This document shows, piece after piece, positions 16,701 through 50,772 of a DNA stretch of 64,000 bases. The notes beneath the pieces are model-generated. The model was not told the origin of the DNA, ran no database searches, and worked only from the letters and a program-made list of their open reading frames with translations. Made by a program: the position numbers and the translations under genes. The DNA is from Candidatus Babeliales bacterium (lineage in GTDB: Bacteria; Babelota; Babeliae; Babelales; Vermiphilaceae). The stretch lies in contig DATIEE010000006.1 of NCBI GenBank assembly GCA_035455925.1, positions 45,224 through 109,223 of the forward strand, in the 5' to 3' direction. Position 1 is the first letter of the stretch. The number at the start of each line of letters is the position of its first letter.

Positions 16701-17120
16701 TTAACGTTTTACAAATTGAAATTTAGCACGAGCGCCTTTTTGACCATATTTTTTACGCTCTTTTTTACGAGCATCAACAGTCATAAGTCCGTGTTTTTTT
16801 AAAATAGATTTTGTATTAGCATCGAATTGAACAAATGCACGCGCAATGCCCAACTTAACTGCATCTGCTTGTGCTACTTTACCGCCACCGCATACATTCA
16901 CTTCAACATTAAAATCGGTCCCTATCGGACAAACTCTAAATGGAGTAGTTGCAACATCAGCCGCAACTTGAGTATCAAAATAACTTAAATAATCTTGCCC
17001 ATTAACTTTAACTTGACCATCACCTCGACGTAACCATATACGAGCAACTGCAGTTTTTCGGCGTCCTACACCATGAGCAACAGGAGAATTGGCCGTTTTC
17101 TTTGTCATTTCTTTTGCCAT
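16701..17120 (-). CDS. rpsI: 30S ribosomal protein S9
   Basis: GRRKTAVARIWLRRGDG..., GGGKVAQADAVKLGIARAF, and a C-terminal basic tail. Confidence 0.95.
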   Translation of the reverse strand: MAKEMTKKTANSPVAHGVGRRKTAVARIWLRRGDGQVKVNGQDYLSYFDTQVAADVATTPFRVCPIGTDFNVEVNVCGGGKVAQADAVKLGIARAFVQFDANTKSILKKHGLMTVDARKKERKKYGQKGARAKFQFVKR

Positions 17121-17283
17121 ATCGCACTATAACCTTCTCAATATGATTTAATAGATTTCTTTTTTAGTACTATGATTTTGCTAATTAGTATAAAACCATA
17201 AATTTTAATTGTCAAAAATTACTGCTGTTTTATATACATTTTTATTAATTTCAAATTTGATTAATAAAAGTTCAATCAATATA

Positions 17284-17359
17284 TGGAGCCGATGATCGGA
17301 TTTGAACCGATGACCTACTGATTACGAATCAATTGCTCTACCACTGAGCTACATCGGCC
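17284..17359 (-). tRNA. tRNA-Thr (anticodon CGT)
   Basis: Reverse complement gccgatgtagctcagtggtagagc...attga/ttCGTaa/tcagt...ggttcaaatcc...cca forms a cloverleaf with anticodon CGT. Confidence 0.8.
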
Positions 17360-17434
17360 ATTTAATTCACGCAAATATTCCTTTAATTATCACATACAAC
17401 AATTTAAAAGTAAAAATATTATTTGTTATGATAT

Positions 17435-17797
17435 TTAATGTGCACCTTGATCAAGTTTTTCTTCAAAATTTTCTTGGCAAGCTAAACAACGCATTGTACC
17501 GGGAAATGAACTAAGCCGTTTTTCGGAAATTGGATTGCCACAATCAATACATAGCCCATATTCACCTTCTTTTATCCGCTCTAAAGCTTTTGATATACCA
17601 CGGTATTCCTCTAATTCTGCATCTTGAAGTGACATGCGAAGTGATTCCATGGTTGCAGTTAAGGCCTGATCGCCCGGATCTTGTACTTGTCCATCGGAAA
17701 ATTGTTCTTTAGACATTTCCGTTAATTTTTGTTCAAGCTCTAATTTTCGCTTGAGCAAATCAGCTTCAATTTTTTTTAAATTACGTTTTTCATCCAT
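17435..17797 (-). CDS. DksA/TraR-family C4 zinc-finger protein
   Basis: Coiled-coil N-terminus and C-terminal CIDCGNPI...CLAC zinc finger. Confidence 0.8.
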   Translation of the reverse strand: MDEKRNLKKIEADLLKRKLELEQKLTEMSKEQFSDGQVQDPGDQALTATMESLRMSLQDAELEEYRGISKALERIKEGEYGLCIDCGNPISEKRLSSFPGTMRCLACQENFEEKLDQGAH

Positions 17798-18091
17798 TTT
17801 TTCCTCTTATCTTTAAAAAAATTCTTGAGCAACAATGTTACCTCACCAATAAAAAAAACCCTTTTATTCGTAAAGGCATCCCTTTTGTATACTCAAAGAC
17901 TCTCATAGTTGTCAAGAAAAATACTCAAGGGATTGCATTTCATTTTTTGTTTTTTTTATTCTTTGTTCTTTATACTTTGCTTTTGTGGAATTGGTTTTTT
18001 TAGTGTGCAATAATAAATATAATTATAAACTAAATTCCTAATAGACAGAATTGTTAATATTTTTTAAAAAAGAACATTTTTTTCGTAAATA

Positions 18092-19030
18092 TTATGTTGT
18101 TTTAGTTTCAATAATTTTTACATTACCATTGATGCTGTGAAGTGCAATACTTGCTTCACCAGTGCCAATGGTACCGTCAACTGCTTTTTTAAACTTATTC
18201 CATGCTGAATTATTAAGTTGCGTTGTGTAGGGTCGCAAGGTAATAGGGTGATCAGATATAAGAGTTCCATGTTCCGTATATCCATGAATTTCAGCATTAG
18301 TTTCAACAGGTAGCGCGAGTACAATGTTGCCTGATATAGTTTTTAAATTAATTGCGCTTATCGAGGGCACTTCCTTGCAGTAAGCAATTACTTTACCTGA
18401 TGAGGAATGTGCGTTAAAACTATGACTAATATTTTCTCCATAAATGTTTCCATGATAGGAATGAACATTTACTGGGCCTTGGGTGTTTGCAATGGTAATT
18501 GATCCCTTTTTGTGTGTGTAAGCGGTTACTGATTTATGTGTGTTTATTATGGTAATATTATCATTTGTATTAACATTAATAGTTCCGTAAATATCTTTTA
18601 TGAATGCGTCGCCATTTCCTGATATTGTAAGAGCGATATTGAGTGATGTAGGAACGATCAGTTCGTATTCAACAGAGCCAGTCAGTTTTGGGTTGATATA
18701 GTTTGTCGTGATGGTAAGATAATTATTTTTGCTGGAATCAACCATAACTTCAATATTATTGAGATCCTCCTGTTTTCTTGCTCGTTTTGTTGTTTTTAAT
18801 AAAAGTGAATTTTTTTTCCAACCGGTTTTAATCGTGATAGGGCCATTAATATTATCAATAGAGATATTTTTTACTGATAATGTAGAAAATTCCTGTTGAT
18901 CTGTTTTTTCTAACTTATAATTAGTAAAAAAAGTTTTTATTTTTTTACAATAGTGTTGGGCATAACAATTAGTTGTCATTAATGTGCATGTGATAGCGAG
19001 TGCAAGGGTTATACACATAGTTTTATTCAT
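18092..19030 (-). CDS. secreted beta-rich repeat protein (DUF4097/putative-adhesin-like)
   Basis: Signal peptide. Repeated G-x-I/V-x-V strands (NGNVKI, SGNIVLALP) typical of beta-helical DUF4097 proteins. Weak assignment. Confidence 0.4.
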   Translation of the reverse strand: MNKTMCITLALAITCTLMTTNCYAQHYCKKIKTFFTNYKLEKTDQQEFSTLSVKNISIDNINGPITIKTGWKKNSLLLKTTKRARKQEDLNNIEVMVDSSKNNYLTITTNYINPKLTGSVEYELIVPTSLNIALTISGNGDAFIKDIYGTINVNTNDNITIINTHKSVTAYTHKKGSITIANTQGPVNVHSYHGNIYGENISHSFNAHSSSGKVIAYCKEVPSISAINLKTISGNIVLALPVETNAEIHGYTEHGTLISDHPITLRPYTTQLNNSAWNKFKKAVDGTIGTGEASIALHSINGNVKIIETKTT

Positions 19031-19137
19031 TCGTTATCCTTTGATATAGTAAGATATTCAATTTTTTGATGTGTTTGTAGCATACAAAAAATGTTGTGCT
19101 AATTCAAAGAACAGTATTGTTATAATAAGGAAAAACG

Positions 19138-20517
19138 ATGAAATTAATGGGCCAGCAGTATGATAAAATACATGAAATTATTGAAGTAATTAGTCAAAAT
19201 AAAGGCCGTGCTTTGTTAGTTGGTGGCGCAGTGCGTGATATGGTTTTAGGTTTATTATTAAAGGACATTGATATTGAAGTTTATGGTCTTTCGCAATCTC
19301 AATTAGAAAGTATTTTACAAAAATTTGGTCATGTAAATTTAGTAGGAAAATCGTTTGGTGTGTTACGAGTTAGTGGTCTTGATGCTGATTGGTCATTGCC
19401 ACGTGTAGATAGTTCAGGACGCAAACCGACTGTTGAGGTGGATCCGTTTATGTCCATTGAAATTGCTGCACGACGCAGAGACTTAACGATGAATGCAATG
19501 TTGTTTGATATGATAACAGGTGAGCTAATTGACCCGTGTAATGGGATAGATGATATTAAAAAAAAAGTATTACGAACTCCTGATGCACGTTTTTTTATTC
19601 AAGATCCATTACGGTTTTATCGTGTTATGCAATTTATTGCGCGATTTGAAATGATACCAGATGATGAATTGAATGCACTATGCGCCGAGATGGATATTAC
19701 ATCTATTTCACGGGAACGCATTGAAGAAGAATTTAAAAAAATGTTTTTATATGCACAACGGCCCTCACTAGGGATTCGTTGGGTGCATAAAATTGGACGT
19801 TTGTCTGATGTATTACCTGAGCTTGCGGCTACTGTTGGGATAAAACAAAACCCACAATGGCATCCTGAAGGAGATGTTTTTGAGCATACAATGCAATCCC
19901 TTGATGCCGCAGCAGTTATAGCTCAGAGCTATGATAAAGAGTTCGACAAATTAATACTTTTATATGCTGCACTATGTCACGATTTGGGAAAGGTGACGAC
20001 AACTAAAATGGTTAATGGAGTTCTTAAAAGTATTGGCCATGAAAAAGAAAGTAAAAGATTGGCTTGTTTGTTAATGAAACGTATTACGCATAATAGTGAT
20101 TTGATTAATGCAGTTGGCTGTTTAGTTTTACATCATATGGCACCATTGCAATTTGTGCGTAATAAAGCAAAACTGCCTGCATATAAACGTCTAGCAAATA
20201 AATTAGTACATAATGTCACCATGCTTATGCTTATTGATTTATGTAGTGCTGATAGACAAGGTCGAAATGATACAGGGCATGAACCATTAAAGGATAATTT
20301 TTCGGATTTAATGGTTTTTAAACAAAAAGTGGAACAAGCCGGAGTTTCTACAGGTCGTATCGATCCGTTATTAAAAGGTGCTGACCTGCTTGATATATTA
20401 TCGCCAGGGCCTCAAATGGGAAAATTGTTGACATACGCATATGAAAAACAACTTGCGGAGGATATTAGTGATAAAGCTATTTTAAAAAAACATGTTATTA
20501 AAAAAATGAAAAAATAG
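19138..20517 (+). CDS. cca: CCA-adding enzyme / tRNA nucleotidyltransferase with HD domain
   Basis: LLVGGAVRD, DIDIEV, RRRDLTMNAM nucleotidyltransferase motifs plus an HD motif (ALCHDLGK). Confidence 0.85.
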   Translation: MKLMGQQYDKIHEIIEVISQNKGRALLVGGAVRDMVLGLLLKDIDIEVYGLSQSQLESILQKFGHVNLVGKSFGVLRVSGLDADWSLPRVDSSGRKPTVEVDPFMSIEIAARRRDLTMNAMLFDMITGELIDPCNGIDDIKKKVLRTPDARFFIQDPLRFYRVMQFIARFEMIPDDELNALCAEMDITSISRERIEEEFKKMFLYAQRPSLGIRWVHKIGRLSDVLPELAATVGIKQNPQWHPEGDVFEHTMQSLDAAAVIAQSYDKEFDKLILLYAALCHDLGKVTTTKMVNGVLKSIGHEKESKRLACLLMKRITHNSDLINAVGCLVLHHMAPLQFVRNKAKLPAYKRLANKLVHNVTMLMLIDLCSADRQGRNDTGHEPLKDNFSDLMVFKQKVEQAGVSTGRIDPLLKGADLLDILSPGPQMGKLLTYAYEKQLAEDISDKAILKKHVIKKMKK

Positions 20518-21254: not shown

Positions 21255-22374
21255 CACCACTATCACTAAGAAAATTTACGTGCCACTGCCACTGTCACCA
21301 GATCCGCCAATCGATATGGCGCAAGTATATTTGTACTTAGATAAAGCCGTCTATGCAGTTGCTGAGTTAAACGGGGTTGCAAAATCAATTCCAAATATTT
21401 CTCTTTTTACTTATATGTACGTACGTAAAGAGGCATTACTATCGCCCCAAACAGAAGGCACGCACAGTTTCTTTGCAGATTTGATTTTATCTGGAAATGC
21501 TCAAAGCCCTCATGTAGCAAGAGAAGATGTTGAAGAAGTTTAATCTATGTTGCTGCGCTTAATCATGGTTTACAACGCATAAAAGATCGGTTTCCTTTAA
21601 GTTTACGGTTAATCCGAGAGATTCATAGTGTATTGTTGAGTGGTTGTCGGGATAAACATAAAAGTCTTGGTGAATTTAGAAAATCACAAAATTGGATTGG
21701 TGGGTCAAGGCCAGGTAATGCTTTATTTGTACCGCCATCACCTGAATATTTAAAAGAATGTTTGGCTGATTTGGAAAGTTTTTTTTATGATACAAAGCAG
21801 CCATATCATATCCTCATTAAGGCAGCATTAGTTCATGTACAGTTTGAGACAATACATCCTTTTTTAGATGGTAATGGTAGACTTGGACGTCTTTTTGTTA
21901 TTTTAATGTTGTGCGAAGATGGTTTTTTTACCAGCACCAATTTTGTATATCAGTTTATATTTAAAGCAACATTGCAATCAATACTATGAGTTATTGCAGC
22001 AGGTACGTGAACAAGGTGCGTGGGAAGCGTGGGTTGAATTTTTTTTACAAGGCATTACCCATTCGGCTCAACAAGCTTGTCTAACGATAGACAAAATTAA
22101 TGCACTATTTGCATATGACATAGCCATGGTTAACACGCTTGGTAGAGCGTGATTTTCAGCAACATTGGTTTTTGAAAATTTAAAAAAATTACCTCAAGTA
22201 TCTGTCGCATTTATTGCACAAGAGCTTGATATATCAGAACCTACAGCGAGAACTGCATTGGTTCATTTGCAACAATTAAATATTGTTGCAGAAGTGACGG
22301 GTAAATTACGTAATAAAACATATGTTTATAAAAAATATCTTACTATTTTAGAGCAGGGCGCTGAACCATTATAA
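21250..22374 (+). pseudogene. Fic/Doc-family protein, disrupted by multiple frameshifts
   Basis: Fic-family blocks appear in order but in different frames: KEALLSPQTEGT (21280..21543), HPFLDGNGRLGR Fic motif (21633..21989), LYISLYLKQHCNQYYELLQQVREQGAWEAW (21919..22152), and C-terminal winged-helix TGKLRNKTYVYKKYL (22165..22374). Confidence 0.75.
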
Positions 22375-38057: not shown

Positions 38058-40778
38058 ATGTTTTTTTTAGAATATTTTGAATCAATACTGGGATCCTTTT
38101 ATTTTATATTACCCGCTACATCTATTTCATTTGTACTGAAATTAGTAATATTAATTATTCTAATTCAAAAATCGTTGCTTATGGATACAATGGCTAAGCC
38201 ACTTTTCTTCTTATTTACAATACTTATTGGTAATATGTTTTCTGATTTGGCATGGATACTTAAATTATCTCAAGAACTTTTTTTCCCTCAACTGGGCTAT
38301 CAAATTGTCTTATTGATTATTCGTATTGCATGGATATTTTTTTTAGTACAATATCAATCAATATCATTATTTATAGAAAGTCTTGTAGTTGATAGTTATT
38401 ATATTCCAATTAGACAAAAAATTCTTTGTTGTATAAGTAGTGTCTTTGGTTTATTATTTGCAATAATAGCTATCATTGATTTTGATTGTATAAGTTTAGC
38501 GCAGAGAAAATTTTCATTTGAACCAAGAGTCCAAAATTTTGCTACATTTTATGCTCTTTTTATTGTTATGCTTCCCAGTCTATTTATTGCAATTCAAAAA
38601 ATACGCTCATCTGAATTACCTCACTTGTTGAAAAAACAGCTTAAAGTTCTAATACAGGGTTTAATTATGCCTTTTTTAATGGCTGATTTTATCCAATTAT
38701 TTCCCTTTAAAGTATATGCTATAACCTGGATTGCTCATAGTTATGCAGGCGTTGGATTTTCAACAATATTAACGACATTATCTATTTATTTTTGTGCACG
38801 TAAAATTTTTGGTTTGCGATTTTTAAATTTAAAAAATCATATATATCAGCCCATGAATATTAATTTTATTAATGATTTTAAGGGAGTTTTAGAGCGATTA
38901 AGTGATGTAACTAATTTGCGTGAACTTGGTCATATTACGCAAAATTTTTTTAAAGATACTTTTACTATAGTATCTCATAAAACTCGTCTGTATTTAAGAA
39001 ATAGTAATACCATAGAACATAAGATACATTTGAATATAATCGAAGATAGTACAATTTCACTTGTTGATACATTTTTAGCAACACATGCAACTATTATTGA
39101 ACGGGCATTACGAGAAGAAAAAATTCTGATTTATGATGAAATTGATTTTACTCATTTTTATCATTCATGTGAGAAGAGTGAAGTGCTTTTAAAGTTTTTG
39201 AATAGTATAAATGCAGATATCTTTTTGCCTATTTATGAAAATGAAAAGTTACTTGCATATATTATCGTTGATCGACATGCTCGTGGGGAGAATTTTTATA
39301 GTAATGTTGAACGTGACGAATTTATTGTTTTCGGTAGTTACTTGGGTAACATTATCAATTTATTACAAAATAAAAGTTTAGATATTTTGATTGAACAAGA
39401 ACAAAACTTACGTTTTGAGTTGTATCATAAGCATCAACAGATAGAACAGTATAAAGAAAGTATTAAATCGTTTTTGCGTAAAGGCAAGACGAAACATATT
39501 GGCATATTATTTTATAAAAATAGACATTTTGCATATGGTAATCAGGCAGCAATCGAGTTGATAGATATTAATATTAATCAACAGCATGGACATCCGCTTG
39601 CACAATCTTTACGTCATTTGGCGCAGCAAGTTGAATCTTGTAAAGGACCGAAAACAGTATTTGTTAAAGACACACATGATAATACATTGGTTATTTCTGC
39701 TGTTCCCCATTTAGAAAAAAACACCGTTATTATTACCGTTTCATATCCATCTATTTCTGATGCAGTTAAACACCATATTGATTTATTAAATGATCCAAGT
39801 GAGTGGGATTATTTACTTTATTTGCAGACGACACAATCAGGTAAGTTAATTAATCAACTTATTCCTAGCTCAGGATCAATTTTATTAAATTTTAAAATAC
39901 AACTCCTTAAAATCGCATTAAGTAAAAAAGCAATCTTATTAGAAATGCCCGAACAAGATTTACAACCTACAGCAGAAATATTACATCATATTAGTATGCG
40001 AGATGACTTGCATATTATGACATTGCAAGGACCCTCTTGTAATTTTGACATAGCAGTTGCACTTTTTGGTATTAATCCTATTTTTGGGGTTCAGGAAAAG
40101 TATAGTCAACCTTTATTAGAAAAACTTGATAATGTTGGAACTCTTTTCATAAAAAATATTCATTTCTTGGATAAAGAAACACAAGAATATTTGGCAATGT
40201 TTATTCGAACGGGGACGTATAGTCAATTTAAAAATGATCAAAAAATTGCAAGTAATGTTCGTATTATTTGTTCGACAAATAAAAATTTAAGTTTGTTAGT
40301 TCAAGAAGGAAAGTTTAGTAAAACATTTTTTAATGAATTAAAGTCAACTGTTGTAACATTGCCATCATTATTGACATTGCCTGAAGATGAATTACATGCA
40401 TTAACCGATGGCTTTACGCAGCAAGCATTAATGTCTGATGCATTACAGCATGTCCTTGTGTTAACTGATAAAGAAAAGAATGTTTTAACTCATGATCGAC
40501 CGATAAGCTTGCAAGAATTGAAAGTTCGTGTCCAGCAGACTCTTATAAAAAAATCTAAAAAAAATCATATACATCAGGAAGTTTTATTTGATCCTGCATA
40601 TGATATTACCGATCCTGATCTTATTGAAGCAGCTCGACTCGGTAAAAAAGCATTGCAAGAACCACGCATCATGGGCCTTTTATGGAATAAGTTTAAAAAT
40701 CAAAATAAAATTGCATTTTTTTTAGGAGTTAATCGTTCTTCTGTCAATCGTCGCTGTAAAGAGTATAATTTGTTATAG
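38058..40778 (+). CDS. polytopic membrane protein fused to a GAF-like region, a catalytically degenerate sigma54-activator (EBP AAA+) domain and a C-terminal Fis-type HTH
   Basis: ~8 hydrophobic helices in the first 260 aa. Residues ~640-780 align with Sigma54_activat (GTLFIKNIHFL...VRIICSTNKNL...GKFSKTFFNELKSTVVTLPSLLTLPED) but have lost Walker A (LQGPSCNF), the Walker B DE (IKNI) and GAFTGA. The C-terminus KIAFFLGVNRSSVNRRCKEY is HTH-like. Confidence 0.5.
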   Translation: MFFLEYFESILGSFYFILPATSISFVLKLVILIILIQKSLLMDTMAKPLFFLFTILIGNMFSDLAWILKLSQELFFPQLGYQIVLLIIRIAWIFFLVQYQSISLFIESLVVDSYYIPIRQKILCCISSVFGLLFAIIAIIDFDCISLAQRKFSFEPRVQNFATFYALFIVMLPSLFIAIQKIRSSELPHLLKKQLKVLIQGLIMPFLMADFIQLFPFKVYAITWIAHSYAGVGFSTILTTLSIYFCARKIFGLRFLNLKNHIYQPMNINFINDFKGVLERLSDVTNLRELGHITQNFFKDTFTIVSHKTRLYLRNSNTIEHKIHLNIIEDSTISLVDTFLATHATIIERALREEKILIYDEIDFTHFYHSCEKSEVLLKFLNSINADIFLPIYENEKLLAYIIVDRHARGENFYSNVERDEFIVFGSYLGNIINLLQNKSLDILIEQEQNLRFELYHKHQQIEQYKESIKSFLRKGKTKHIGILFYKNRHFAYGNQAAIELIDININQQHGHPLAQSLRHLAQQVESCKGPKTVFVKDTHDNTLVISAVPHLEKNTVIITVSYPSISDAVKHHIDLLNDPSEWDYLLYLQTTQSGKLINQLIPSSGSILLNFKIQLLKIALSKKAILLEMPEQDLQPTAEILHHISMRDDLHIMTLQGPSCNFDIAVALFGINPIFGVQEKYSQPLLEKLDNVGTLFIKNIHFLDKETQEYLAMFIRTGTYSQFKNDQKIASNVRIICSTNKNLSLLVQEGKFSKTFFNELKSTVVTLPSLLTLPEDELHALTDGFTQQALMSDALQHVLVLTDKEKNVLTHDRPISLQELKVRVQQTLIKKSKKNHIHQEVLFDPAYDITDPDLIEAARLGKKALQEPRIMGLLWNKFKNQNKIAFFLGVNRSSVNRRCKEYNLL

Positions 40779-40811
40779 TAGCTAATTATAGCATTATATC
40801 TTAACGCAGGA

Positions 40812-41735
40812 ATGCATATGAAAAAAGAAGAATTTGAACTTCATAAAGATGCTTTTTTACTGTATCTCAAGACAGAACGGAATTTTTCTGAACATACCCT
40901 ACGTGCATATTATTTGGATCTTAATCAATTCATTTCTTTCTGGTTAGTCTTGTCAGAATATGATGCACACCATCTTGGACTACGTCAGATTATTGAACGA
41001 TATTTGGTCACTCTCTTTTATAAAAAAATTAGTAAAAATTCCATAGCAAGAAAATTTTCCTGCTTTACTTCATTTGAAAGGTTTTTAAAAAGTAAAGGTA
41101 TTGATCTTAAACTTAATCTTAAAAGACCGCCCATTGATAAAAAATTGCCTATTTATTTCAGTATTGATGAATTATCTCATATTCTTGATAGCATATCTCA
41201 TGATACATTATCAACTCGCTATCCCGTGCGTGATAAAACTATTTTTGAACTATTATATGCAACAGGTGTTCGATGTTCTGAGTTGGTTAACATGAAAATT
41301 GAAGATATTGATATGAATAATAAAACCATTCGCATTGTAAGTAAGAATAAAAAAGAGCGAATTGTTTTATTTGGTCTCAAAGCACAAGAAAAAATCTTGG
41401 AATATTATATGACAGAGCGCCCTGCAATACAAAATCAACAAGAACCATTGTTCCTTAATTATCGCTATGAAAAATTAACATCACGCTCAGTACAACGTAT
41501 TATTAAAATGTTTAGAGTTCTTTTGCCACTAGAACGACAATTGACACCACATAAATTACGTCACTCATTTGCAACACATTTACTTAATCAAGGTGCTGAT
41601 TTACATGTAGTACAAGAATTACTTGGGCATAAAACATCTGCAACAACTGAAAAATATACCTATGTTTCTCTTGAAAATCTTTCTAAATTATGTGACGATA
41701 TTCACCCTATTAATGAAATGATACATAAAAAATAA
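40812..41735 (+). CDS. tyrosine recombinase XerC/XerD family
   Basis: C-terminal catalytic block RHSFATHLLNQGADLHVVQELLGHKTSATTEKYTYV and an N-terminal SAM-like domain. Confidence 0.85.
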   Translation: MHMKKEEFELHKDAFLLYLKTERNFSEHTLRAYYLDLNQFISFWLVLSEYDAHHLGLRQIIERYLVTLFYKKISKNSIARKFSCFTSFERFLKSKGIDLKLNLKRPPIDKKLPIYFSIDELSHILDSISHDTLSTRYPVRDKTIFELLYATGVRCSELVNMKIEDIDMNNKTIRIVSKNKKERIVLFGLKAQEKILEYYMTERPAIQNQQEPLFLNYRYEKLTSRSVQRIIKMFRVLLPLERQLTPHKLRHSFATHLLNQGADLHVVQELLGHKTSATTEKYTYVSLENLSKLCDDIHPINEMIHKK

Positions 41736-41739
41736 AGCA

Positions 41740-43461
41740 ATGCATATATCTACCGATACGATTAATAAAAAAATAATATGTATTTTAATTGGTGCAATAT
41801 TATCATTCGTGATTATTTGTTTGCGGCTTTTTTTTCTTCAAATATATTGTGGTGATTATTTTGCTGTGCGTAGTCAGAAAAATTTTATTCGCTATACAAC
41901 CATTTATTCTCCTCGTGGAAGCATTTGCGATATTCACGGTAATCTTCTTGCAACAAATCGTCCAGTGACTACTATATATTGGAAAGGAACGGGAAATAAA
42001 GTATTGTCGCATGAGCAACTGGCGTTGTTACATTTAATTGAAGAAATTGTACAAGTAACGTTAACGACGGGAACAAAGCTTGATTTAATTGTATTAAGTG
42101 AAAAAAAAAATAAAAAAACGGTACTGATTTCTGATATTGATTCTTCCTGCTTGGGTAAATTAATGGAAATTTTTCCGAATCATGAAAATATCCTTATTGA
42201 GACTAACTTTAAACGATTTTACCCTTACCATTCCTATGGCAGTCATGTAGTGGGTTATTTGGGTGACATTGCTGCAATTGCTCATGGTAAATTAGGATTA
42301 GAAAAATTGTTTGATGAAAATTTATCCGGTAAAAAAGGATCTATGCAAAATATAGTTAATTCAGCAGGTCAATGTATATCCCAGGTTGAACTTGAGAAAG
42401 CATTAATTGGTAATGATGTACAGACAACTATCAATATTGATATCCAGGTTTTGTGTGAAAAAATTTTTCCTGACCATAGAACAGGTAGTCTCATTTTACT
42501 TAATCCAGCAAATGGAGCAATTGCTTCATTAGTATCACGTCCTAATTTTGATCCAAATATTTTTCTTGACCCAATTTCTTATAAAACATGGCAAGATTTA
42601 CAAGAAAAAAATCCATTTTTGAATCGTGTTTTTGACGCTAGCTATCCTTCAGGGTCTATTTTTAAACTCGTTGTTATTAGTGCAGCACTTGAATGTGGCA
42701 TTATTAATGAAGATTCATTATGGAATTGTAAGGGATACACGTTTTTTGGTAATCGTAAGTATTGGTGTGCTCGTCGTTCGGGACATGGCGAAATATCGAT
42801 AAAAAAAGCAGTGGCAGAATCATGTAATACATTATTTTTTGAAATTGGCAAACAAATTGATATTGACGTTCTTGCTGAATATGCGCACAAGTTTGGTTTA
42901 GGTAAAAAAACTAATATTATTTTTCCAGAAAAAATGGGATTGATTCCAAGCAGAGAATGGAAATTTGGCTATAAAGGTGAGTGTTGGTGGCCTGGAGAAA
43001 CCTTATCTGTTGCAATTGGTCAAAGTTTTTTGCTTGTAACACCTATTCAAATAGCATGCATGATTGGCAGCATTTTTACTGGATATCATGTTACGCCGCG
43101 ACTATTGATTGATGAGCCGATAATCATGAATAATTTGAATATTAAAGCTGAAACGATTACTTTTTTAAAAAAATCAATGAAATCTGTGGTAAAAAGTGGT
43201 ACGGGACGTAGCGTACGTAAAGTAAAAGATATTACTATTTATGCAAAAACTAGTACTGCTCAAACAAGTGATTTTAGTAAACGTAAGTTAGATGAAAAAT
43301 ATTTAGAGCATGGATGGTTTGTTGCATATTTTCAATATAAAGACTATGACCCAATGGTTATTGTAATTCTTGTTGAACGAGTTGGTACTGCTCAAGTTGC
43401 CACAAATATTGCAAAAAATTTTTTAATCGAATATAAAAAGTATATGGATTTAGTATGTTAA
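41740..43461 (+). CDS. penicillin-binding protein 2-type transpeptidase
   Basis: N-terminal TM, dimerisation domain, SGSIFK (SxxK) and a KTS/GT motif (AKTSTAQ). Confidence 0.85.
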   Translation: MHISTDTINKKIICILIGAILSFVIICLRLFFLQIYCGDYFAVRSQKNFIRYTTIYSPRGSICDIHGNLLATNRPVTTIYWKGTGNKVLSHEQLALLHLIEEIVQVTLTTGTKLDLIVLSEKKNKKTVLISDIDSSCLGKLMEIFPNHENILIETNFKRFYPYHSYGSHVVGYLGDIAAIAHGKLGLEKLFDENLSGKKGSMQNIVNSAGQCISQVELEKALIGNDVQTTINIDIQVLCEKIFPDHRTGSLILLNPANGAIASLVSRPNFDPNIFLDPISYKTWQDLQEKNPFLNRVFDASYPSGSIFKLVVISAALECGIINEDSLWNCKGYTFFGNRKYWCARRSGHGEISIKKAVAESCNTLFFEIGKQIDIDVLAEYAHKFGLGKKTNIIFPEKMGLIPSREWKFGYKGECWWPGETLSVAIGQSFLLVTPIQIACMIGSIFTGYHVTPRLLIDEPIIMNNLNIKAETITFLKKSMKSVVKSGTGRSVRKVKDITIYAKTSTAQTSDFSKRKLDEKYLEHGWFVAYFQYKDYDPMVIVILVERVGTAQVATNIAKNFLIEYKKYMDLVC

Positions 43462-43489
43462 AATTATTAGATATGAAGGATATAGAAAT

Positions 43490-43900
43490 ATGAATATGCG
43501 AGCAATGATGTTTACTGTTGCATTCTTTTTATCTAGTGTGCCGATTACATCGATGGCGGAATATAAATTTAATACACAAAAAAAACTCTATTCATCATAT
43601 GCTGCATCATACATACTTTCATTAGTGTTGAGTGGTTGTGTTGGCGTAACCACCGGTAGTACAATACGCTATGTTGAAAGGAAATACGATTTTGAATCAT
43701 CTACGTTATTATTGTTTTTAGGTTGGATGGTTGAATATGAAATACGTAATAATATTATTACGTATTTACAAAAAGATTTTGATATGTATAAGGTTAAATA
43801 CAAAAAAGAATCTATGTTTACTATTGGATGGATTGCATCATGGCTTGCATATTTATATAAGAATGACATCATTTCGAGAGATATTTTTTTGCATAACTAA
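43490..43900 (+). CDS. hypothetical membrane protein
   Basis: 136-aa ORF with signal/TM segments. Confidence 0.3.
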   Translation: MNMRAMMFTVAFFLSSVPITSMAEYKFNTQKKLYSSYAASYILSLVLSGCVGVTTGSTIRYVERKYDFESSTLLLFLGWMVEYEIRNNIITYLQKDFDMYKVKYKKESMFTIGWIASWLAYLYKNDIISRDIFLHN

Positions 43901-43991
43901 TTATTTACTAGTTGGTTAAATGGATAATTTTTATTATATTACTACATAGGTATTGATTTTTATTAGTGTATATTTATGTAGATGAGGTAAA

Positions 43992-44774
43992 ATGAAAAGG
44001 TATTTGTTATTAATGAGTTTGGTCAGTGTAGTGAATAATTATACAATGAATCCAACAATCAACTACAAAGATAATACTAAACTTCAATTGATAACATCCT
44101 TACAAGATAACTCTTTTGATGCGGTGGTAAATCTATTACACGATAATCCGAAGTTGCTTCATGATAATAAGAATCCTTATATTGATCAACTTTTCGCGCG
44201 CAAATTCGTTACGCTGCCGCCCCAGTTCCTGAATAGTAAATTGGGAGATGGGTTGACACCTGATCAATTAGCTTTGATAAGAAAAAATAATAATGCATAT
44301 GATTATATGAAAAAATTAGTACATGTGGGATTTGATCTTGATGTACGTGGTGAGGATGGAATGCCTTTATTGTGTCAAGCAATTCTATATACATACGATG
44401 ATAGATATTTAGAATTATTAAAGGGTGGTGCACGGGTAAATGTTTATGATAATTTTGGCAATACGCCATTAGCTTTTGCAGTTTTTTTAGATCATCCAGA
44501 AAAAGTATCAAAGCTACTTGCTTATGGCGCAGTAGTTAACATAAATACGTATCAAATACATTTAAATTCCGGCTTTCAAATATTAAACACTTTATTATTA
44601 ATATTCTGGCAGCAAAAATGTATTCTGTGCAACACGCATAATTATGATTTATATAATATTCCATGTGTTAATCGCCACCTAGAGCATTTCCTGTGTATAA
44701 ATTGTTATAAGGATATGGAGTATGAATATAAAAAGTGTCCTTTATGCCGTAGGAATCTTGATAAGGAAATTTAA
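43992..44774 (+). CDS. eukaryotic-like ankyrin-repeat protein with C-terminal RING-like zinc finger
   Basis: Ankyrin repeats (DGMPLLCQAILYTYDDRYLELLKGGARVNVYDNFGNTPLAFAV) and a C-terminal Cys/His array CILC-x11-C-x3-H-x2-H-x2-C-x2-C-x10-CPLC resembling C3HC4 RING. Confidence 0.65.
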   Translation: MKRYLLLMSLVSVVNNYTMNPTINYKDNTKLQLITSLQDNSFDAVVNLLHDNPKLLHDNKNPYIDQLFARKFVTLPPQFLNSKLGDGLTPDQLALIRKNNNAYDYMKKLVHVGFDLDVRGEDGMPLLCQAILYTYDDRYLELLKGGARVNVYDNFGNTPLAFAVFLDHPEKVSKLLAYGAVVNINTYQIHLNSGFQILNTLLLIFWQQKCILCNTHNYDLYNIPCVNRHLEHFLCINCYKDMEYEYKKCPLCRRNLDKEI

Positions 44775-45659: not shown

Positions 45660-47492
45660 TTAGTTAAATTTATGAGATTCCCGAGGAGTTATACCTAATA
45701 ATTCATAAATCTCATCAGCATGCAAGGTCTCTTTTTCAATTAATGCATTAGCAAGAAGATCAAGTTTGTCGAGATTGTCTTCAAGCAATTTACGAGTTTT
45801 CTCGTGATATAATGCGGTTAATCGTTGAACTTCAGCATCAATTTTTTCAGCTGTTTTTTGAGAATATTCGAATTCACCATGCTGTTGACTATAAATTATA
45901 GTACCAAGGTCCGGAGACATACCGTATTTGCAGACCATGTTACGAGTGATACGATTTGCTGCTTGAAAATCACTATAAGCGCCAGTGGTAAGTGTATTAA
46001 ATATAATTTCTTCTGCAACACGACCACCAAGTGCCGACATAACTGATGCTTCCATTTCTTCTTTAGTAGTGATGTATTTTTCACGTTCTGGTAAAAAATG
46101 AGTTACACCTAATGCAGATCCACGGGGGATAATAGTCACCTTATGCAATGGATCGGATGTTTCTGGTAATAAAAGACGTACAAGAGCATGACCTGCTTCA
46201 TGATATGCTATGAGTTTTTTATCCTCGGTGGTGAGCATAATACTTTTTGTTTCTTTTCCAAGCATTATTTTATCCCGAGCTTCCTCAAAATCAGCCATCG
46301 TGACTAAATTAGCATCTTCTTTTTTTGATGCATTTATTGCGGCTTCATTGACTAAGTTTGCAAGATCAGCTCCAGAAAACCCCGGGGTTCCTTGAGCAAT
46401 TTTTTTTACATCAAGATTTTTTTCTACTTTTATATTCTTGATATGCACGGTTAAAATAGATTCACGACTTTTTAGATCAGGATATGGTACAGTAACACGA
46501 CGATCAAATCGTCCTGGCCGTAACAATGCTTTATCTAATACATCAACTCTATTTGTTGCGGCTATAACAATGATGGGCGAGGGAGATACTTCAAAACCAT
46601 CCATTTCAGCAAGTAATTGATTAAGAGTTTGCTCACGTTCATCATTTCCTCCACCCATACCGCTTCCACGATGACGTCCCACTGCATCAATTTCATCAAT
46701 AAAAATAATGCTTGGAGAATGTTTACGTGCTTGTGCAAAGAGATCACGAACGCGTGCTGCGCCTACACCAACAAAAACTTCAATAAAATTTGATCCGCTG
46801 ATGCTAAAAAAGGGACAGTTTGCTTCACCGGCAACTGCACGTGCTAATAAAGTTTTACCATTTCCAGGTTCGCCAATTAAAAGGATCCCACGAGTAATTT
46901 TTGCACCGAGTCGTTGATATTTTTTTGGATTTTTCAAAAAATCTATGACATCAGCGAGCTCTTCTTTTGCTTCATCTGCACCAGCAACAGAATTAAAATT
47001 TTCTTTAATGCTTGAAGGCAAAAACATACGAGCACCACTTTTTCCCATAGTAAAAATATTACCACCGCCGCTATTGCCAGCATTACGAGAGCGAACAAAA
47101 TACCAAATGGCCCAAATGGCCACAAACAAACATGAAAAAAGGAAAAGATACCAAATGCCTAATTGATTTGATGGAGAGATTATCGAAAACTCTACGCCAT
47201 GCATACGTAAACGATCCCAATCATTTGCATTATTACCGACAACAGTTTCAAATCGAGTTCCATCGGTAAAGATTCCTTCAACATCTTGACCTGATACGTA
47301 TACTTTTTTGACTAAGTCTTGATCGACTTTTTCTAAAAATGTTGAATAGGAAACAATTTGAACGTTTCTTGCTAATTCGGTCAACTTATAAAGTACTAAT
47401 AATACTCCTGCAAGTATAATAAATACGAGGAGTATGTTTTTTATATTTTTTGGGCTAGGGGTCCACGAAATATTATTTTTATTTTTTTTCAT
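45660..47492 (-). CDS. ftsH: ATP-dependent zinc metalloprotease FtsH
   Basis: Two N-terminal TMs, AAA Walker [19 protein letters not shown], and zinc-binding HEAGHAL. Confidence 0.95.
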
Positions 47493-47598
47493 ATAAATTC
47501 ATTTGTTTTTGAGGTTTAAAGACATACTATATTGTAAAAATACCATTTTTAACCATTTTATTATACCATCATTGTGAATTTTGTCGATTTTAAATTTT

Positions 47599-48897
47599 TT
47601 AAGTTACTACAGGAAATTTCGTATAAATGGGTCCCCAGTGAGGGTAACTGCATTGTTCGTGTTCACCTGTTATATATTTTGTTTTATTAGTTAATAAATT
47701 AAGTGAAGCTAAACGACTTGTTTTATTAGGAACCTCATGTGCAAATAAAATCTGTGTGCCATCGGGTGACCAACTTGCTTCATGTTTATTTCCGTTTGTT
47801 GAAGTTATTTGCACATGTTCTTTTGTCGCACAATTATATATCATAATTTGCATAGTTCTCTGTATCATTTTATGATAAACAATTTTATTAGTTTTTAAAC
47901 AATAATTTGGTGATGTACAATAACCTCCTTTGGTAATTCGTTGAATATGTCCAGTTTTAAGGTTAGCAATATAAATTTGTGGATTACCTGTTTGAAAATC
48001 TGAACAAAAACATAATCGATCTTCATCGAGAAAGATGGGAGAAGTATTATTTCCACTGTTTTTAGTGCATCGTTTCAAAATATTATTTTCTTGTAAATAA
48101 ATTTGGCAACTTCCATTTCCTCGTGATGAGCAATAAGCAGATTTTCCATTAGGTGAAAAAGTCATAAGCATGTTAATACCATCAAAACTAGATATAATAT
48201 CGTTTTTTTTATTCATAGTGCTTGATATAAGGCGAACGTTAGTATCGGCATATTCGGAATAATAAACACAGGGTTTTGTTATATGCCAACGCGGCGCAAC
48301 AGTAATGGTAGAAGTGTCAACAAGAAGTTCTTCATGGGAACCATCAAAATCAGCTACGTAAATTTTTCTTACCGTAAGTCCTTTATTATTATTATTCACA
48401 TCTTTGCAATATACTAATCGTGAAGAAAAAAAACCATCATTAGCGGTGAGTGTTTTATATAACTCGTCAGCAACAGCATGCGCACAGGATCGCGCTATAT
48501 TTCCATTTTTTTTATATTTTTTTCCCTGAATCATAGTACATTGCATCGTTTCATATAATCTCCATTCAATATTTTCAGAAGAATCTATATTGATACATAA
48601 TACTATCGGAGTACCGATAGCACCATAATGAAGGATCTTTTTTCGCAGTTCTTTTTTTGATAGTTGCTCAGAAATTTCTTGTATGTTTAATTTGAATTGA
48701 TCAGTAAACTCTAAATCTTTTTTGATAGTTATTGCTACATCTTTTAGTTCATTATTATTGTTATTGAGCATTAAAATTGCAATTTGCATGTGTGTGGGTT
48801 GTGCATTTGACACCATAAGGGTTATTTCTTCTGGTAGCGTGCATATCGTAATAAGTAGTAATAATACTATACATAAATTTTTTATTTTCATTTCCAT
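47599..48897 (-). CDS. tolB: TolB-like periplasmic beta-propeller protein
   Basis: Signal peptide. Repeated propeller blades with SPNGKS/SWSPDG motifs. Located directly downstream of tolQ-tolR-tolA. Confidence 0.7.
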   Translation of the reverse strand: MEMKIKNLCIVLLLLITICTLPEEITLMVSNAQPTHMQIAILMLNNNNNELKDVAITIKKDLEFTDQFKLNIQEISEQLSKKELRKKILHYGAIGTPIVLCINIDSSENIEWRLYETMQCTMIQGKKYKKNGNIARSCAHAVADELYKTLTANDGFFSSRLVYCKDVNNNNKGLTVRKIYVADFDGSHEELLVDTSTITVAPRWHITKPCVYYSEYADTNVRLISSTMNKKNDIISSFDGINMLMTFSPNGKSAYCSSRGNGSCQIYLQENNILKRCTKNSGNNTSPIFLDEDRLCFCSDFQTGNPQIYIANLKTGHIQRITKGGYCTSPNYCLKTNKIVYHKMIQRTMQIMIYNCATKEHVQITSTNGNKHEASWSPDGTQILFAHEVPNKTSRLASLNLLTNKTKYITGEHEQCSYPHWGPIYTKFPVVT

Positions 48898-48913
48898 TTA
48901 CTCATTGCGTAAT

Positions 48914-49696
48914 TTATTGTTTAAAATTTATTATAATTGATTTTCCATATGTCCATGGTGGCATTTTCATTGAAAAAAGTGCTTGACGTGCCGAAATATC
49001 ATACATCATTACTCCAGATGCCTTGGTTATTTTTAAATTTTCTATTACGCCACGCTTATTAACAAAAAAAGATATATCGCAGGAACATTCTGCCGATACG
49101 CCAAATGGTGGTTTCCATTGTTGTACCAATTCTTTTTGTAATTGTGCATTACAACGCAACGCTTCAGCTTCACGATAATTATAGGATATTTGCGCATCTT
49201 TAGGAATTATTTGTTTAATTGTTTGTTGTATATCAAGAGCTTGAGCGATAGGTGTTTTTGCTACTACAGGTTTTTTTGGGATCTCTTTTTTTAGTTCGGT
49301 ATTTGTTGTATTACTATTTTGTTTATTATGAGTAATCGGTAATGGTTCTACTATTTTTTTTTGTTCGACATTTGCAATAGTCGTTGGTTTTTGTATGTTT
49401 ACTACTTTATTGAGTGCATTTGTTAAAGTTTTTGTTTGCATTATTTTTGGTTTTGGTGACGATGTTTTATTTGTACTATTTTTAGTGTGTGTTGTTTGTA
49501 GAGATGTGCCACATGGTACAAATATAATTGGTGCAGAATAATCTAATTTTTTATGTAGTGAAATTGTGTAGTGATGATCACGGTACATGCAAAATAACAA
49601 AAATAAAAAAATAAAATGTGAAAAAAAGCAGATGCTAAAAAGTTTAGCCCAAAGAAGATGTCGTTTTTGAATGTTTTTGTGTTGCCAGAGCCACAT
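48914..49696 (-). CDS. TolA/TonB-like energy-transducer (C-terminal TonB-type domain)
   Basis: N-terminal TM, Lys/Thr/Pro-rich linker, and a C-terminal domain typical of TonB/TolA C-termini. Overlaps tolR, so the true start is probably internal. Confidence 0.55.
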   Translation of the reverse strand: MWLWQHKNIQKRHLLWAKLFSICFFSHFIFLFLLFCMYRDHHYTISLHKKLDYSAPIIFVPCGTSLQTTHTKNSTNKTSSPKPKIMQTKTLTNALNKVVNIQKPTTIANVEQKKIVEPLPITHNKQNSNTTNTELKKEIPKKPVVAKTPIAQALDIQQTIKQIIPKDAQISYNYREAEALRCNAQLQKELVQQWKPPFGVSAECSCDISFFVNKRGVIENLKITKASGVMMYDISARQALFSMKMPPWTYGKSIIINFKQ

Positions 49697-50087
49697 ATTT
49701 TATACCACCAATATATTTAATGTCATCAACTAATTCAATCACTGTTCCGTAAGAAATTTCTGTATCAGCTTTTACATATACTGTTTTTTCGTGATCATCA
49801 CCGATTATTTTTTTTAGGTGCGCAATAAGATCAATTTTTGCAGTTTTTATATTGTTGATATAAAACTCACTATTTTTATCAATAAATATAATGAGTTCAT
49901 TTTGCTGGCTGGAAGCATTTTCTTGTGTGTTTCCACGTGGCAATGTTACCTTAATAGCGTTTTGTAATATTGGCGTTGCGATCATAAAAATAATTAGTAA
50001 TGTTAAAGCCGTATCAATCAATGGCGTCATCGAAAGATCAGTTAAGCTATTTTTTTGTCGAGTTAATCGTCTATTCATGCGACGCAT
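49644..50087 (-). CDS. TolR/ExbD biopolymer transport protein
   Basis: DLSMTPLIDTALTLLIIFMIATP single-TM signature; 147 aa. Confidence 0.75.
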   Translation of the reverse strand: MRRMNRRLTRQKNSLTDLSMTPLIDTALTLLIIFMIATPILQNAIKVTLPRGNTQENASSQQNELIIFIDKNSEFYINNIKTAKIDLIAHLKKIIGDDHEKTVYVKADTEISYGTVIELVDDIKYIGGIKYVALATQKHSKTTSSLG

Positions 50088-50091
50088 TTTA

Positions 50092-50772
50092 TTACCTTTC
50101 TCGAAGTTGATGCATAATAAATATTACTCGATCGGCTAGTAGGATAAGGCTATGCTCAAGTGAACGTGTTTTAGTATGTAGATAATTAAACATAATAAGA
50201 GCTGGAATGGCAATAATTAGTCCCGCCAGCGTGGTAATGAGTGCCTCTGCAATACCAGGAGCAATCGTTGTAATATCTGCAACTTGTGTTTCGCTAATAC
50301 GCATAAAAGAATGCACAAGGCCCCATACCGTACCAAAAAGGCCAAGCAAGGGTGCAACAGCAGCACTTGATGATAATAATGTAAGATATTCTTCATTATG
50401 TAGTAGTATTGTTTCAACTGAATTTTCGATATTTCTTTCTAAAAGTTCCCATTCATTATCCGTAATTTGTTGATTAAGATTACCATGCATTATTTCTTTT
50501 AAAAATAATATATTTTTAAAAATAAAATAATGAGGAGTTGAAACTTGTTCTCTTGTAGTAATTTCAATAAGATCAGTAATATTTTTTGCCATTTCAACTT
50601 TTTTATTTATTTTTTTAAATTGACGTTCTTTGATGCATAACAATGCAAGCTTACCGATAAAAACGGTCCAACAAAGTACAGACATAAGAAATAATATGAG
50701 CAATACAATTTTGCTAATTGAATCTGCTTGGCACACTAATTGCCAGAGAGAATTTCCAGAAAAAATATTCAT
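50092..50772 (-). CDS. TolQ/ExbB (MotA-family) proton channel
   Basis: Three TMs and the LGLFGTVWGL signature. Confidence 0.8.
   Translation of the reverse strand: MNIFSGNSLWQLVCQADSISKIVLLILFLMSVLCWTVFIGKLALLCIKERQFKKINKKVEMAKNITDLIEITTREQVSTPHYFIFKNILFLKEIMHGNLNQQITDNEWELLERNIENSVETILLHNEEYLTLLSSSAAVAPLLGLFGTVWGLVHSFMRISETQVADITTIAPGIAEALITTLAGLIIAIPALIMFNYLHTKTRSLEHSLILLADRVIFIMHQLRER

Follow-up and report, generated by a model that had tools for sequence, protein, structure and literature searches.

A membrane-integrated, catalytically degenerate relative of sigma54 enhancer-binding proteins and its divergent small peptide gene in the Babeliales

Canonical enhancer-binding proteins (EBPs) such as PspF, NtrC, NtrC1 and ZraR consist of an AAA+ domain (PF00158), with sensor I and a lid, followed by a C-terminal Fis-type helix-turn-helix (HTH), and others, including NifA, NorR and FhlA, carry GAF or PAS sensory domains upstream of that core. 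Activation of sigma54 requires both ATP hydrolysis and contact through the GAFTGA motif (reviewed in PMC7175178). A set of atypical EBPs, comprising TyrR, HupR, HsfA, PhhR, NtrX and VpsR, lack GAFTGA and function as ordinary activators or repressors at sigma70 promoters, and some of these have non-consensus Walker motifs, such as the Walker B of VpsR (PMC6158489). The atypical proteins are soluble, have REC or ACT/PAS domains at their N-termini, and in most cases keep a nucleotide-binding P-loop. The subject of this report is a gene at positions 38058..40778 (+) of a 64-kb stretch of DNA from a Candidatus Babeliales bacterium (GenBank assembly GCA_035455925.1, contig DATIEE010000006.1, positions 45,224 to 109,223; the whole stretch of 64,000 nucleotides is called the window below). 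Its uninterrupted open reading frame (ORF) encodes a receptor-type protein of 906 residues, in which a seven-transmembrane (7TM) domain, a GAF-like domain, a coiled coil, a PAS-like domain, a degenerate AAA+ domain of the EBP type and a Fis-type HTH follow one another. Like the atypical EBPs, the protein has an EBP-type core ahead of a Fis-type HTH and has lost GAFTGA; unlike them, it begins with a 7TM input domain, and its P-loop, arginine fingers and sensor II are gone. The closest known kind is the atypical EBP of sigma70-type promoters, with the qualification that the soluble, nucleotide-binding part of that description does not apply. On balance, the protein is probably an inner-membrane one-component transducer, that is, an ATP-independent, membrane-tethered DNA-binding regulator of sigma70-type promoters.

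Membrane-bound sensors of other kinds offer partial parallels. The 7TMR-DISM receptors, for example RgsP, which has been linked to peptidoglycan growth (PMC6107284), also join a seven-helix membrane input to cytoplasmic signalling domains, but the 906-residue protein has neither a 7TMR-DISM match in Pfam nor a DISMED domain, and its predicted output is DNA binding rather than kinase or cyclase activity. The initial annotation of this locus had likened the protein to ToxR and CadC. The likeness holds for the logic, in that ToxR, CadC and TcpP also place sensing and DNA binding in one membrane-bound polypeptide, but the topology and domains are entirely different: those proteins have an N-terminal cytoplasmic winged helix of the OmpR type, a single transmembrane (TM) segment and a periplasmic sensor, whereas here the arrangement is reversed, with the 7TM domain first, then about 650 cytoplasmic residues, and a Fis-type HTH at the C-terminus. 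The architecture had also been called uncharacterised. The general idea of a pseudo-EBP turns out to be known (PMC6158489), but what is new here is that such a core is fused to a 7TM domain and that its nucleotide site has been lost completely, and a literature search for membrane-anchored EBPs found nothing. No curated family exists for the 906-residue protein; every NCBIfam match falls far under its cutoff, the sub-threshold similarities being to PspF, TyrR, NtrX, DhaR, AtoC, PrpR and others.

The widespread phylum Dependentiae is made up of bacteria that have reduced genomes and live as obligate parasites of protists. The protein belongs to a large family centred on this phylum. A word-indexed search found 415 relatives; among the matches listed, the relatives are about 905 residues long and carry PF00158, and they are named 'sigma 54-interacting transcriptional regulator [Candidatus Babeliales bacterium]' by NCBI and TyrR-like by JGI. 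Exhaustive searching of 1.84 billion cluster representatives with HMMER recovered 346 proteins at E <= 1e-30, which are almost without exception about 900 residues long and match end to end at identities down to 34%, with 466 at E <= 1e-10 and 4,753 at E <= 1e-3. Conservation was read from an alignment of 129 full-length representatives at 34-51% identity, with column counts given per 130. When one genome was scanned for each GTDB species, 159 relatives were confirmed, and the titles that name a lineage are all Dependentiae, Babeliales, Babelota or TM6, except for metagenome-assembled genomes labelled Pseudomonadota/Proteobacteria. Among these 159, the loci of 79 non-redundant Babeliales/Dependentiae members were retrieved for a locus survey. 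Each has one or two family genes, with two tandem copies within the 5-kb flanks in 30 of the 79 (for example, L001 12947-15664 and L003 12977-15739); tandem paralogs share no more than 40-46% identity, and all are equally degenerate. The two copies in OY969622.1 lie far apart (loci L047 and L071), one of the matches lies in the complete genome AP025250.1, and the lineage of this window has a single copy. The retention of a 906-residue regulator at one or two copies per locus in reduced genomes fits a central role.

Full-length homologs also show that the 906-residue ORF, set in AT-rich DNA (G+C about 28-34%), is a real gene. The ATG at 38058 is favoured over the later start chosen by NCBI (P0001, 862 aa), because K28, within the first TM helix, varies little or not at all and because full-length homologs of about 905 residues persist down to 34% identity. 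A pseudogene or assembly artefact was considered and rejected, given full-length conservation over hundreds of clusters.

The homology of residues 601-845 (39858..40592) to the AAA+ domain of EBPs, proposed in the initial annotation, emerges from several comparisons. PF00158 scores 43.5 bits against a threshold of 20.2 bits over residues 639-764, corresponding to profile positions 39-165 of 168, and it is matched by all 30 of the 30 aligned family members; PF14532 matches the protein as well. A phmmer search against the PDB aligned residues 635-848 with residues 42-256 of PspF (E 2.5e-11). With the full-length AlphaFold model as query, Foldseek returned only EBPs, headed by the atypical EBP NtrX (E 6.9e-8) and including NtrC1, ZraR, NtrC4, PspF, FlrC, DmpR and VpsR (best hits about 7e-8 to 1e-5). 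Sensor I is retained as CSTN (CATN in PspF), and the lid subdomain is present, the AAA+ model extending to about residue 845.

The functional motifs of this domain were read on PspF numbering (K42, N64, GAFTGA 83-88, D107/E108, R162, R168 and R227). In the former Walker A (residues 629-636; 39942..39965), EMPEQDLQ replaces GERGTGKE, with E629-M-P-E-Q-D-L635 pairing with the GERGTGK that contains K42, and no GxxGxGK P-loop is found across the 129 representatives. Loss of the P-loop had been noticed initially, but with the wrong residues in its place: LQGPSCNF, then taken for the Walker A remnant, pairs with PspF LNCAALNE, the switch-Asn strand. The losses of the Walker B acidic pair and of GAFTGA had been read correctly. 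In the former Walker B (residues 696-702; 40143..40163), LFIKNIH replaces LFLDELA, so that the DE pair becomes K699-N700, with K, Q or E at position 699 in the family. In the former L1 loop (residues 671-679; 40068..40094), GINPIFGVQ replaces GHEAGAFTGAQ with a deletion of two residues ('--PIFGV'), and the family consensus is GINPLFG. The arginine fingers R162 and R168 are replaced by S754 and E760, which are S and E family-wide, and the sensor II residue R227 by Q819, at a position substituted across the family. The sensor II/arginine region that had been reported as present thus survives as backbone, with all three arginines substituted.

These comparisons support the conclusion that the domain is a true EBP homolog which, judged by its residues, is incapable of canonical ATP binding and hydrolysis and is without the sigma54-contacting loop, as the initial annotation had expected. 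They likewise support an ancient origin for the degenerate state and purifying selection on it across the whole family, in which the catalytic and sigma54-contact motifs are lost throughout. The protein shares the AAA+ fold, sensor I, the lid and the C-terminal HTH with canonical EBPs, and upstream GAF- or PAS-like domains with NifA, NorR and FhlA, but it lacks the residue sets for ATP hydrolysis and sigma54 remodelling and is predicted to be integrated in the membrane. Because activation of sigma54 requires both ATP hydrolysis and the GAFTGA contact, it cannot be a sigma54 activator in the known sense. Two residues of the dead nucleotide pocket are almost invariant: D634 (39957-39959) is kept in 129/130, with L, I or V at the adjoining position of the Walker A lysine, and N700 (40155-40157) is kept in 113/130. 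The conservation of these substitute residues points to a selected, non-catalytic role, and, together with a conserved linker described below, suggests that they have a function so far unrecognised, perhaps as a binding site for a ligand or a partner or as a latch within the molecule.

The C-terminal HTH (residues 853-906, LWNKFKNQNKIAFFLGVNRSSVNRRCKEYNLL; 40614..40775, +) contains the most conserved 30-residue window of the protein, residues 871-900, with the pattern LWxKFKNQNKIAxFLGVNRSSVNRRCKEY. A profile of the last 61 residues matched Fis (E 0.0034), a Fis-like protein, the DNA-binding domain of TyrR (E 0.096) and almost nothing else, and the HTH pattern NQxxxAxxLGxNRxxxxxxxKxY aligns residue for residue with those DNA-binding domains. 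The NCBIfam alignments to TyrR, NtrX, AtoC, DhaR and PrpR reach within a few residues of the C-terminus, and the model shows a four-helix C-terminal bundle at residues 853-902. The Fis and TyrR matches sustain the Fis-type HTH proposed initially, while the HTH_8 profile gave only marginal matches, in 2 of 30 members.

The N-terminal membrane domain (residues 1-253; 38058..38816) matches the polytopic domain of about 260 residues recognised at the outset. A 19-residue hydropathy scan found six hydrophobic segments over threshold in residues 1-250, and both AlphaFold models add a weaker seventh to give a bundle like that of a G-protein-coupled receptor (GPCR), with TM helices at residues 14-41, 47-74, 81-110, 118-140, 155-183, 189-214 and 229-252. 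One model is of full length, built from a 30-sequence alignment with a mean predicted local distance difference test (pLDDT) score of 71; the other covers residues 1-568 and was built from 88 sequences (pLDDT 85, predicted template modelling score, pTM, 0.70). Clusters of Lys/Arg in loops 1-2, 3-4 and 5-6 and after TM7 argue, by the positive-inside rule, for an N-out/C-in topology with everything after residue 253 in the cytoplasm. Since TM1 begins at residue 14, there is no ectodomain. Pfam gave no match within residues 1-600, either at E up to 10 for the 906-residue protein or at 0.05 for 30 members.

Between the membrane and the AAA+ core, the 7TM, GAF-like and PAS-like folds having all been compared with the PDB by Foldseek, the models place two putative sensory domains joined by a helix. 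The GAF-like alpha/beta domain (residues 269-438; 38862..39371) follows from the order of secondary structure in the model, and Foldseek matches it weakly (E about 1e-3) to PAS-GAF-PHY modules of phytochromes. A GAF-like middle region had been proposed initially, and the predicted fold agrees with it, but no Pfam match and no match of a profile of residues 262-566 to PDB sequences was obtained. A long connecting helix or coiled coil (residues 441-474; 39378..39479), present in both models, is highly conserved (ELYxKHQEINQYKESIRSF). It leads into a PAS-like domain (residues 482-562; 39501..39743), modelled as five strands with intervening helices, for which Foldseek gives PAS matches at E about 0.03 and Pfam a sub-threshold match to MEKHLA (15.5 bits). 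The linker that follows (residues 566-600, DPSEWDYLLYLETT; 39753..39857), with the pattern DPSEWDYLLYL(Q/E)TTxSGK, falls in a 30-residue window that is surpassed in conservation only by that of the HTH, but has pLDDT below 50.

The proposed way to connect these parts is that the GPCR-like bundle would sense a cue in the membrane or periplasm, and the signal would be relayed through the cytoplasmic GAF-like domain, the coiled coil and the PAS-like domain. The dead AAA+ core would serve only as an oligomerisation or scaffold module that positions the C-terminal HTH, and the signal would alter the state of AAA+ assembly and, through it, DNA binding by the HTH. By analogy with TyrR, VpsR and NtrX, the regulator would act at ordinary sigma70-type promoters. 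It is improbable, by comparison, that the membrane form is an inactive precursor from which FtsH, a site-2 protease or another protease frees a soluble GAF-PAS-pseudoAAA-HTH regulator. Two conserved and poorly modelled stretches, residues 251-270 and 566-634 (pLDDT below 50), could be processing or docking sites, and FtsH is encoded nearby in the window and at several other loci. This proximity is inconsistent across the loci, however, no cleavage motif was identified in the protein, and the approximately 650 cytoplasmic residues would let the HTH reach DNA without release.

A new element, absent from the initial annotation, is a paired small peptide gene. An alignment of nine related upstream regions exposed a minus-strand start with a GGAG ribosome-binding site (RBS), and from it runs an unannotated ORF of 36 residues (37862..37972, -; MKHYVNFITFVLSHHKQLLTITAFLLGLIGDAPPGG). 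Its product is basic at the N-terminus, contains a hydrophobic helix and ends in a tail of the form (D/E)xPPxx. An equivalent ORF is found in most upstream regions of the family, very distant ones included (loci L001 and L004-L082), with a length of 20-62 residues (median 33) and a median ATG-to-ATG distance to the family gene of 83 nt. K or R occurs near the N-terminus in 71/79, the C-terminal tail has the form [D/E/R/V]-[F/W/G/A/M]-P-P-x-x, and the stop always comes 1-3 residues past the last PP (two residues in 51/79). Sites resembling a Shine-Dalgarno sequence precede 64/79 small ORFs, compared to 9/79 receptor genes, and suggest that the small ORFs are translated. In a census of 966 kb of Babeliales loci with 7,215 small ORFs, 90 were hydrophobic with PP in the last six residues, and 75 of these 90 lie on the opposite strand no more than 450 nt upstream of a family gene; the 64-kb window has one such ORF, that at 37862-37972 (-).

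Downstream of the small ORF lies the gene for endonuclease III (nth; 37126..37803, -, identified by Pfam). The PP-tail ORF is also found beside family genes that have no nth neighbour (L029, L038, L047, L066, L071, L075 and L076), and between tandem copies, upstream of the second one, arguing that the association is with the receptor gene and not with nth. An acidic residue precedes PP in 40 peptides, as in the window, while in 10 the motif is R-(W/F/Y/M/I)-PP, frequently with an acidic residue after it, and most of these 10 stand beside second or dispersed copies of the receptor gene. A hairpin or palindrome, TAGCAT-N7-ATGCTA (37826-37846), is located between the small-ORF stop and the nth RBS and is present only in six close relatives; it may be an RNA structure or a site for a protein.

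Described peptide-signalling cassettes resemble this arrangement in several respects. In shp/rgg, a short hydrophobic peptide gene adjoins and diverges from the regulator gene; here, too, the peptide carries a conserved acidic residue, followed by a short tail at the C-terminus; and AgrC is a polytopic receptor without a large ectodomain. MgrB-PhoQ offers an alternative likeness, in which a small membrane protein modulates a membrane sensor. The differences are that Rgg is a cytosolic TPR-type receptor and that AgrC and PhoQ are histidine kinases, and that no export or processing genes adjoin the PP-tail gene. The small PP-tail peptide is the best candidate for a ligand or membrane partner of the receptor. 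It might act as a membrane-embedded or released ligand, with a logic like that of SHP/Rgg or AgrD/AgrC, or as a small-protein modulator, as MgrB does with PhoQ. A bolder proposal, which can be put forward only tentatively, is that the two genes form a self-contained cassette of ligand, receptor and transcription factor. The PP-tail peptide would activate or restrain a GPCR-like receptor fused to its own DNA-binding output, the cassette would have been duplicated into cognate pairs in the Dependentiae (acidic versus R-aromatic tails), and it would time division or the developmental cycle (through xerC and PBP2; see below) in the protist host.

The small ORF might instead have nothing to do with receptor input and be an arrest or leader peptide, in which a stall at PP(G), relieved by EF-P or by membrane insertion, tunes the downstream gene, here nth. 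A hydrophobic N-terminal segment with a C-terminal proline motif is reminiscent of monitoring peptides of the SecM, MifM and ApdA type, and the stop always lies within 1-3 codons of PP; the hairpin ahead of nth in close relatives is also in keeping with such a role. That hairpin is confined to six closely related loci, however, and the ORF also occurs beside paralogs with no nth downstream and between tandem copies. Moreover, the peptides of L049, L065, L070 and L082 contain two or three repeats of the motif, and the chemistry of the tail varies by paralog group, so that an arrest peptide seems an unlikely explanation.

The small ORF and the receptor gene share a divergent region of 85 nt (37973..38057), a putative control region for both, in which an alignment of nine related loci reveals conserved elements. 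The block AAGTATAATAAAGC has the form of a sigma70-type -10 element about 40 nt ahead of the receptor ATG, and AAGTATAAT, from this block, is the only k-mer enriched across 66 upstream regions. A second conserved block, CGCAATAT, lies just before the receptor ATG and on the minus strand reads TTGCGA-17 nt-TATACT; this was also picked independently by a consensus scan and is placed to drive the small ORF. The conserved 5' leader of the receptor gene, CGCAATATAATTATG (38040-38057), would double as the -35 element of this putative divergent promoter. A search of Rfam over 37000-44500 found nothing. The likely targets of a membrane-tethered regulator would be this shared region itself and, via co-transcription, the genes xerC and PBP2 downstream.

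Those genes begin 33 nt after the receptor gene with a XerC/D-type tyrosine recombinase (40812..41735, +), followed after 4 nt by a PBP2-type transpeptidase (41740..43461, +; Pfam PBP_dimer and Transpeptidase), and no terminator-like site is found on the plus strand between the receptor gene and xerC-PBP2 in the window. Co-transcription of the three is likely. In the locus survey, nth is the divergent neighbour upstream of the family gene in 62 of 75 evaluable loci, xerC lies downstream of it in 57/75 (gap below 300 nt in 38 and below 40 nt in 23), and PBP2 generally comes directly after xerC, which gives a conserved order of nth, the family gene in one or two tandem copies, xerC and PBP2. Outputs of this kind would link the system with division and growth of the wall in the intracellular cycle. 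A hint of envelope or cell-division regulation had already been drawn from this position in the initial annotation; the synteny behind it is conserved, often with operon-like spacing, but the proposed role rests on gene order, and the order PhoH-thrS-nth is syntenic too. A promoter-like sequence, CTGTCA-17-TATAAT, at 40741-40769 (+), within the 3' end of the receptor gene and just upstream of xerC, could be an internal promoter for xerC-PBP2.

The same gene order could be explained if the protein were a regulated membrane-DNA tether rather than a transcription factor, fixing a site of the chromosome to the envelope so that, at division, the resolution of chromosome dimers by XerC is coordinated with wall synthesis by PBP2. 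In favour of a tether are the combination of a polytopic membrane domain with a DNA-binding helix under extreme conservation and the conserved position directly upstream of xerC-PBP2, with a gap of less than 40 nt in 23 loci. Signalling, however, better explains why there are sensor domains, a promoter that is divergent and looks regulated, and a peptide gene paired with the receptor gene, and an EBP core with a Fis-type HTH belongs to transcription regulators in all characterised cases, such as NtrC, TyrR and NtrX, which makes a tether very improbable.

The architecture, the motif losses and their conservation, the synteny and the pairing with the peptide gene are observed, whereas DNA binding, dependence on sigma70, the targets, the signal and the part played by the peptide are inferred. 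Several observations weigh against the membrane-tethered, sigma70-type regulator favoured here. The GAF and PAS assignments are predicted folds with weak scores, segment 566-634 is poorly modelled in the full-length model, and the AAA+ part of that model reaches only moderate confidence. No DNA operator was found in the 66 upstream regions by k-mer or inverted-dyad analysis, which returned only the -10 block and the hairpin of six loci. When the class of peptide tail was compared with receptor columns by mutual information, the 7TM domain, with 27% of columns, held 32 of the 50 highest-ranking ones, many of them in predicted periplasmic loops, but this association is suggestive only, because phylogeny and the high variability of that domain both confound it, and is not counted as evidence. 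The linkage to xerC and PBP2 may partly reflect a general stability of gene order. Finally, the absence of rpoN from the 64-kb window lends the favoured reading little weight, since the window holds only a few per cent of such a genome.

Promoter sequences speak for the sigma70-type reading, in that the putative control region has conserved sigma70-type -10 and -35 elements and no exact sigma54 -24/-12 site (TGGCAC-N5-TTGCW) occurs in the window. Matches to the sigma54 consensus with up to two mismatches number 44 against 29 expected, most of them inside ORFs, and were judged uninformative. It is most unlikely that the protein still serves sigma54 control as a non-catalytic subunit or anti-activator of an active EBP (an HrpR/HrpS-type hetero-hexamer, or dominant-negative poisoning of a ring), as the retained AAA+ fold and sensor I and the general tolerance of AAA+ rings for inactive subunits might allow, because all examined tandem and dispersed paralogs are equally dead, no canonical EBP or rpoN is found in the window or in the 5-kb flanks of the 79 loci, the arginine fingers that would complete a neighbour's active site are also lost, and the L1 loop has a deletion.

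Kept in one or two copies per locus in the 79 loci, the 906-residue protein is a strong candidate for a master regulator in the Dependentiae. Descriptions of regulators from this phylum are scarce; the paper on the Chromulinavorax genome lists only merR, yebC and fmdB, and a literature search on sigma54 or regulators in Dependentiae/TM6 found nothing. The public label 'sigma 54-interacting transcriptional regulator', like that of TyrR-like protein, is misleading because everything needed for interaction with sigma54 has been lost. The family illustrates how far an AAA+ transcription engine can be stripped, of its P-loop, acidic pair, arginine fingers and sigma54 loop, and still be conserved, and the joining of a GPCR-like 7TM input to an EBP-type core is an architecture undescribed for relatives of EBPs. 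The paired peptide gene offers a concrete hypothesis on the signal, and cultivable strains exist (Babela, Vermiphilus, Chromulinavorax and Noda2021).

The wider neighbourhood was annotated with Pfam. Upstream of the receptor gene lie genes for PhoH/PIN, ThrRS, a small C2H2-like protein and endonuclease III (minus strand), and after PBP2 come a small membrane protein, an Ank-RING protein, FtsH and a Tol-Pal cluster. FtsH and the Tol-Pal genes make up an envelope cluster at 45660-50772 (-), with a TolB-like beta-propeller, a TonB/TolA-like protein, TolR/ExbD and TolQ/ExbB. Proteins of the eukaryote-like or effector type that is typical of Dependentiae are encoded at 36581-37129 (+; C2H2 zinc-finger-like), 43992-44774 (+; ankyrin and RING-finger), 13281-14687 (-; ankyrin-repeat) and 21633-21989 (+; Fic-domain), and a DksA-type zinc-finger regulator is encoded at 17435-17797 (-). 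GC skew turns from negative to positive at about 18 kb (cumulative minimum; region about 17000-19500), where gene orientation also flips from mostly minus to plus. This point looks like a replication origin, but dnaA is not adjacent, and the flanking genes are an unassigned ORF of 312 residues and one for an enzyme of the CCA-adding/poly(A) polymerase type. At the left end of the window, the segment 203-8194 holds a large serine recombinase (5701-7326) among ORFs without a Pfam match (203-1312, 1776-2483, 3370-4848 and 7592-8194), and may be a mobile or integrated element.

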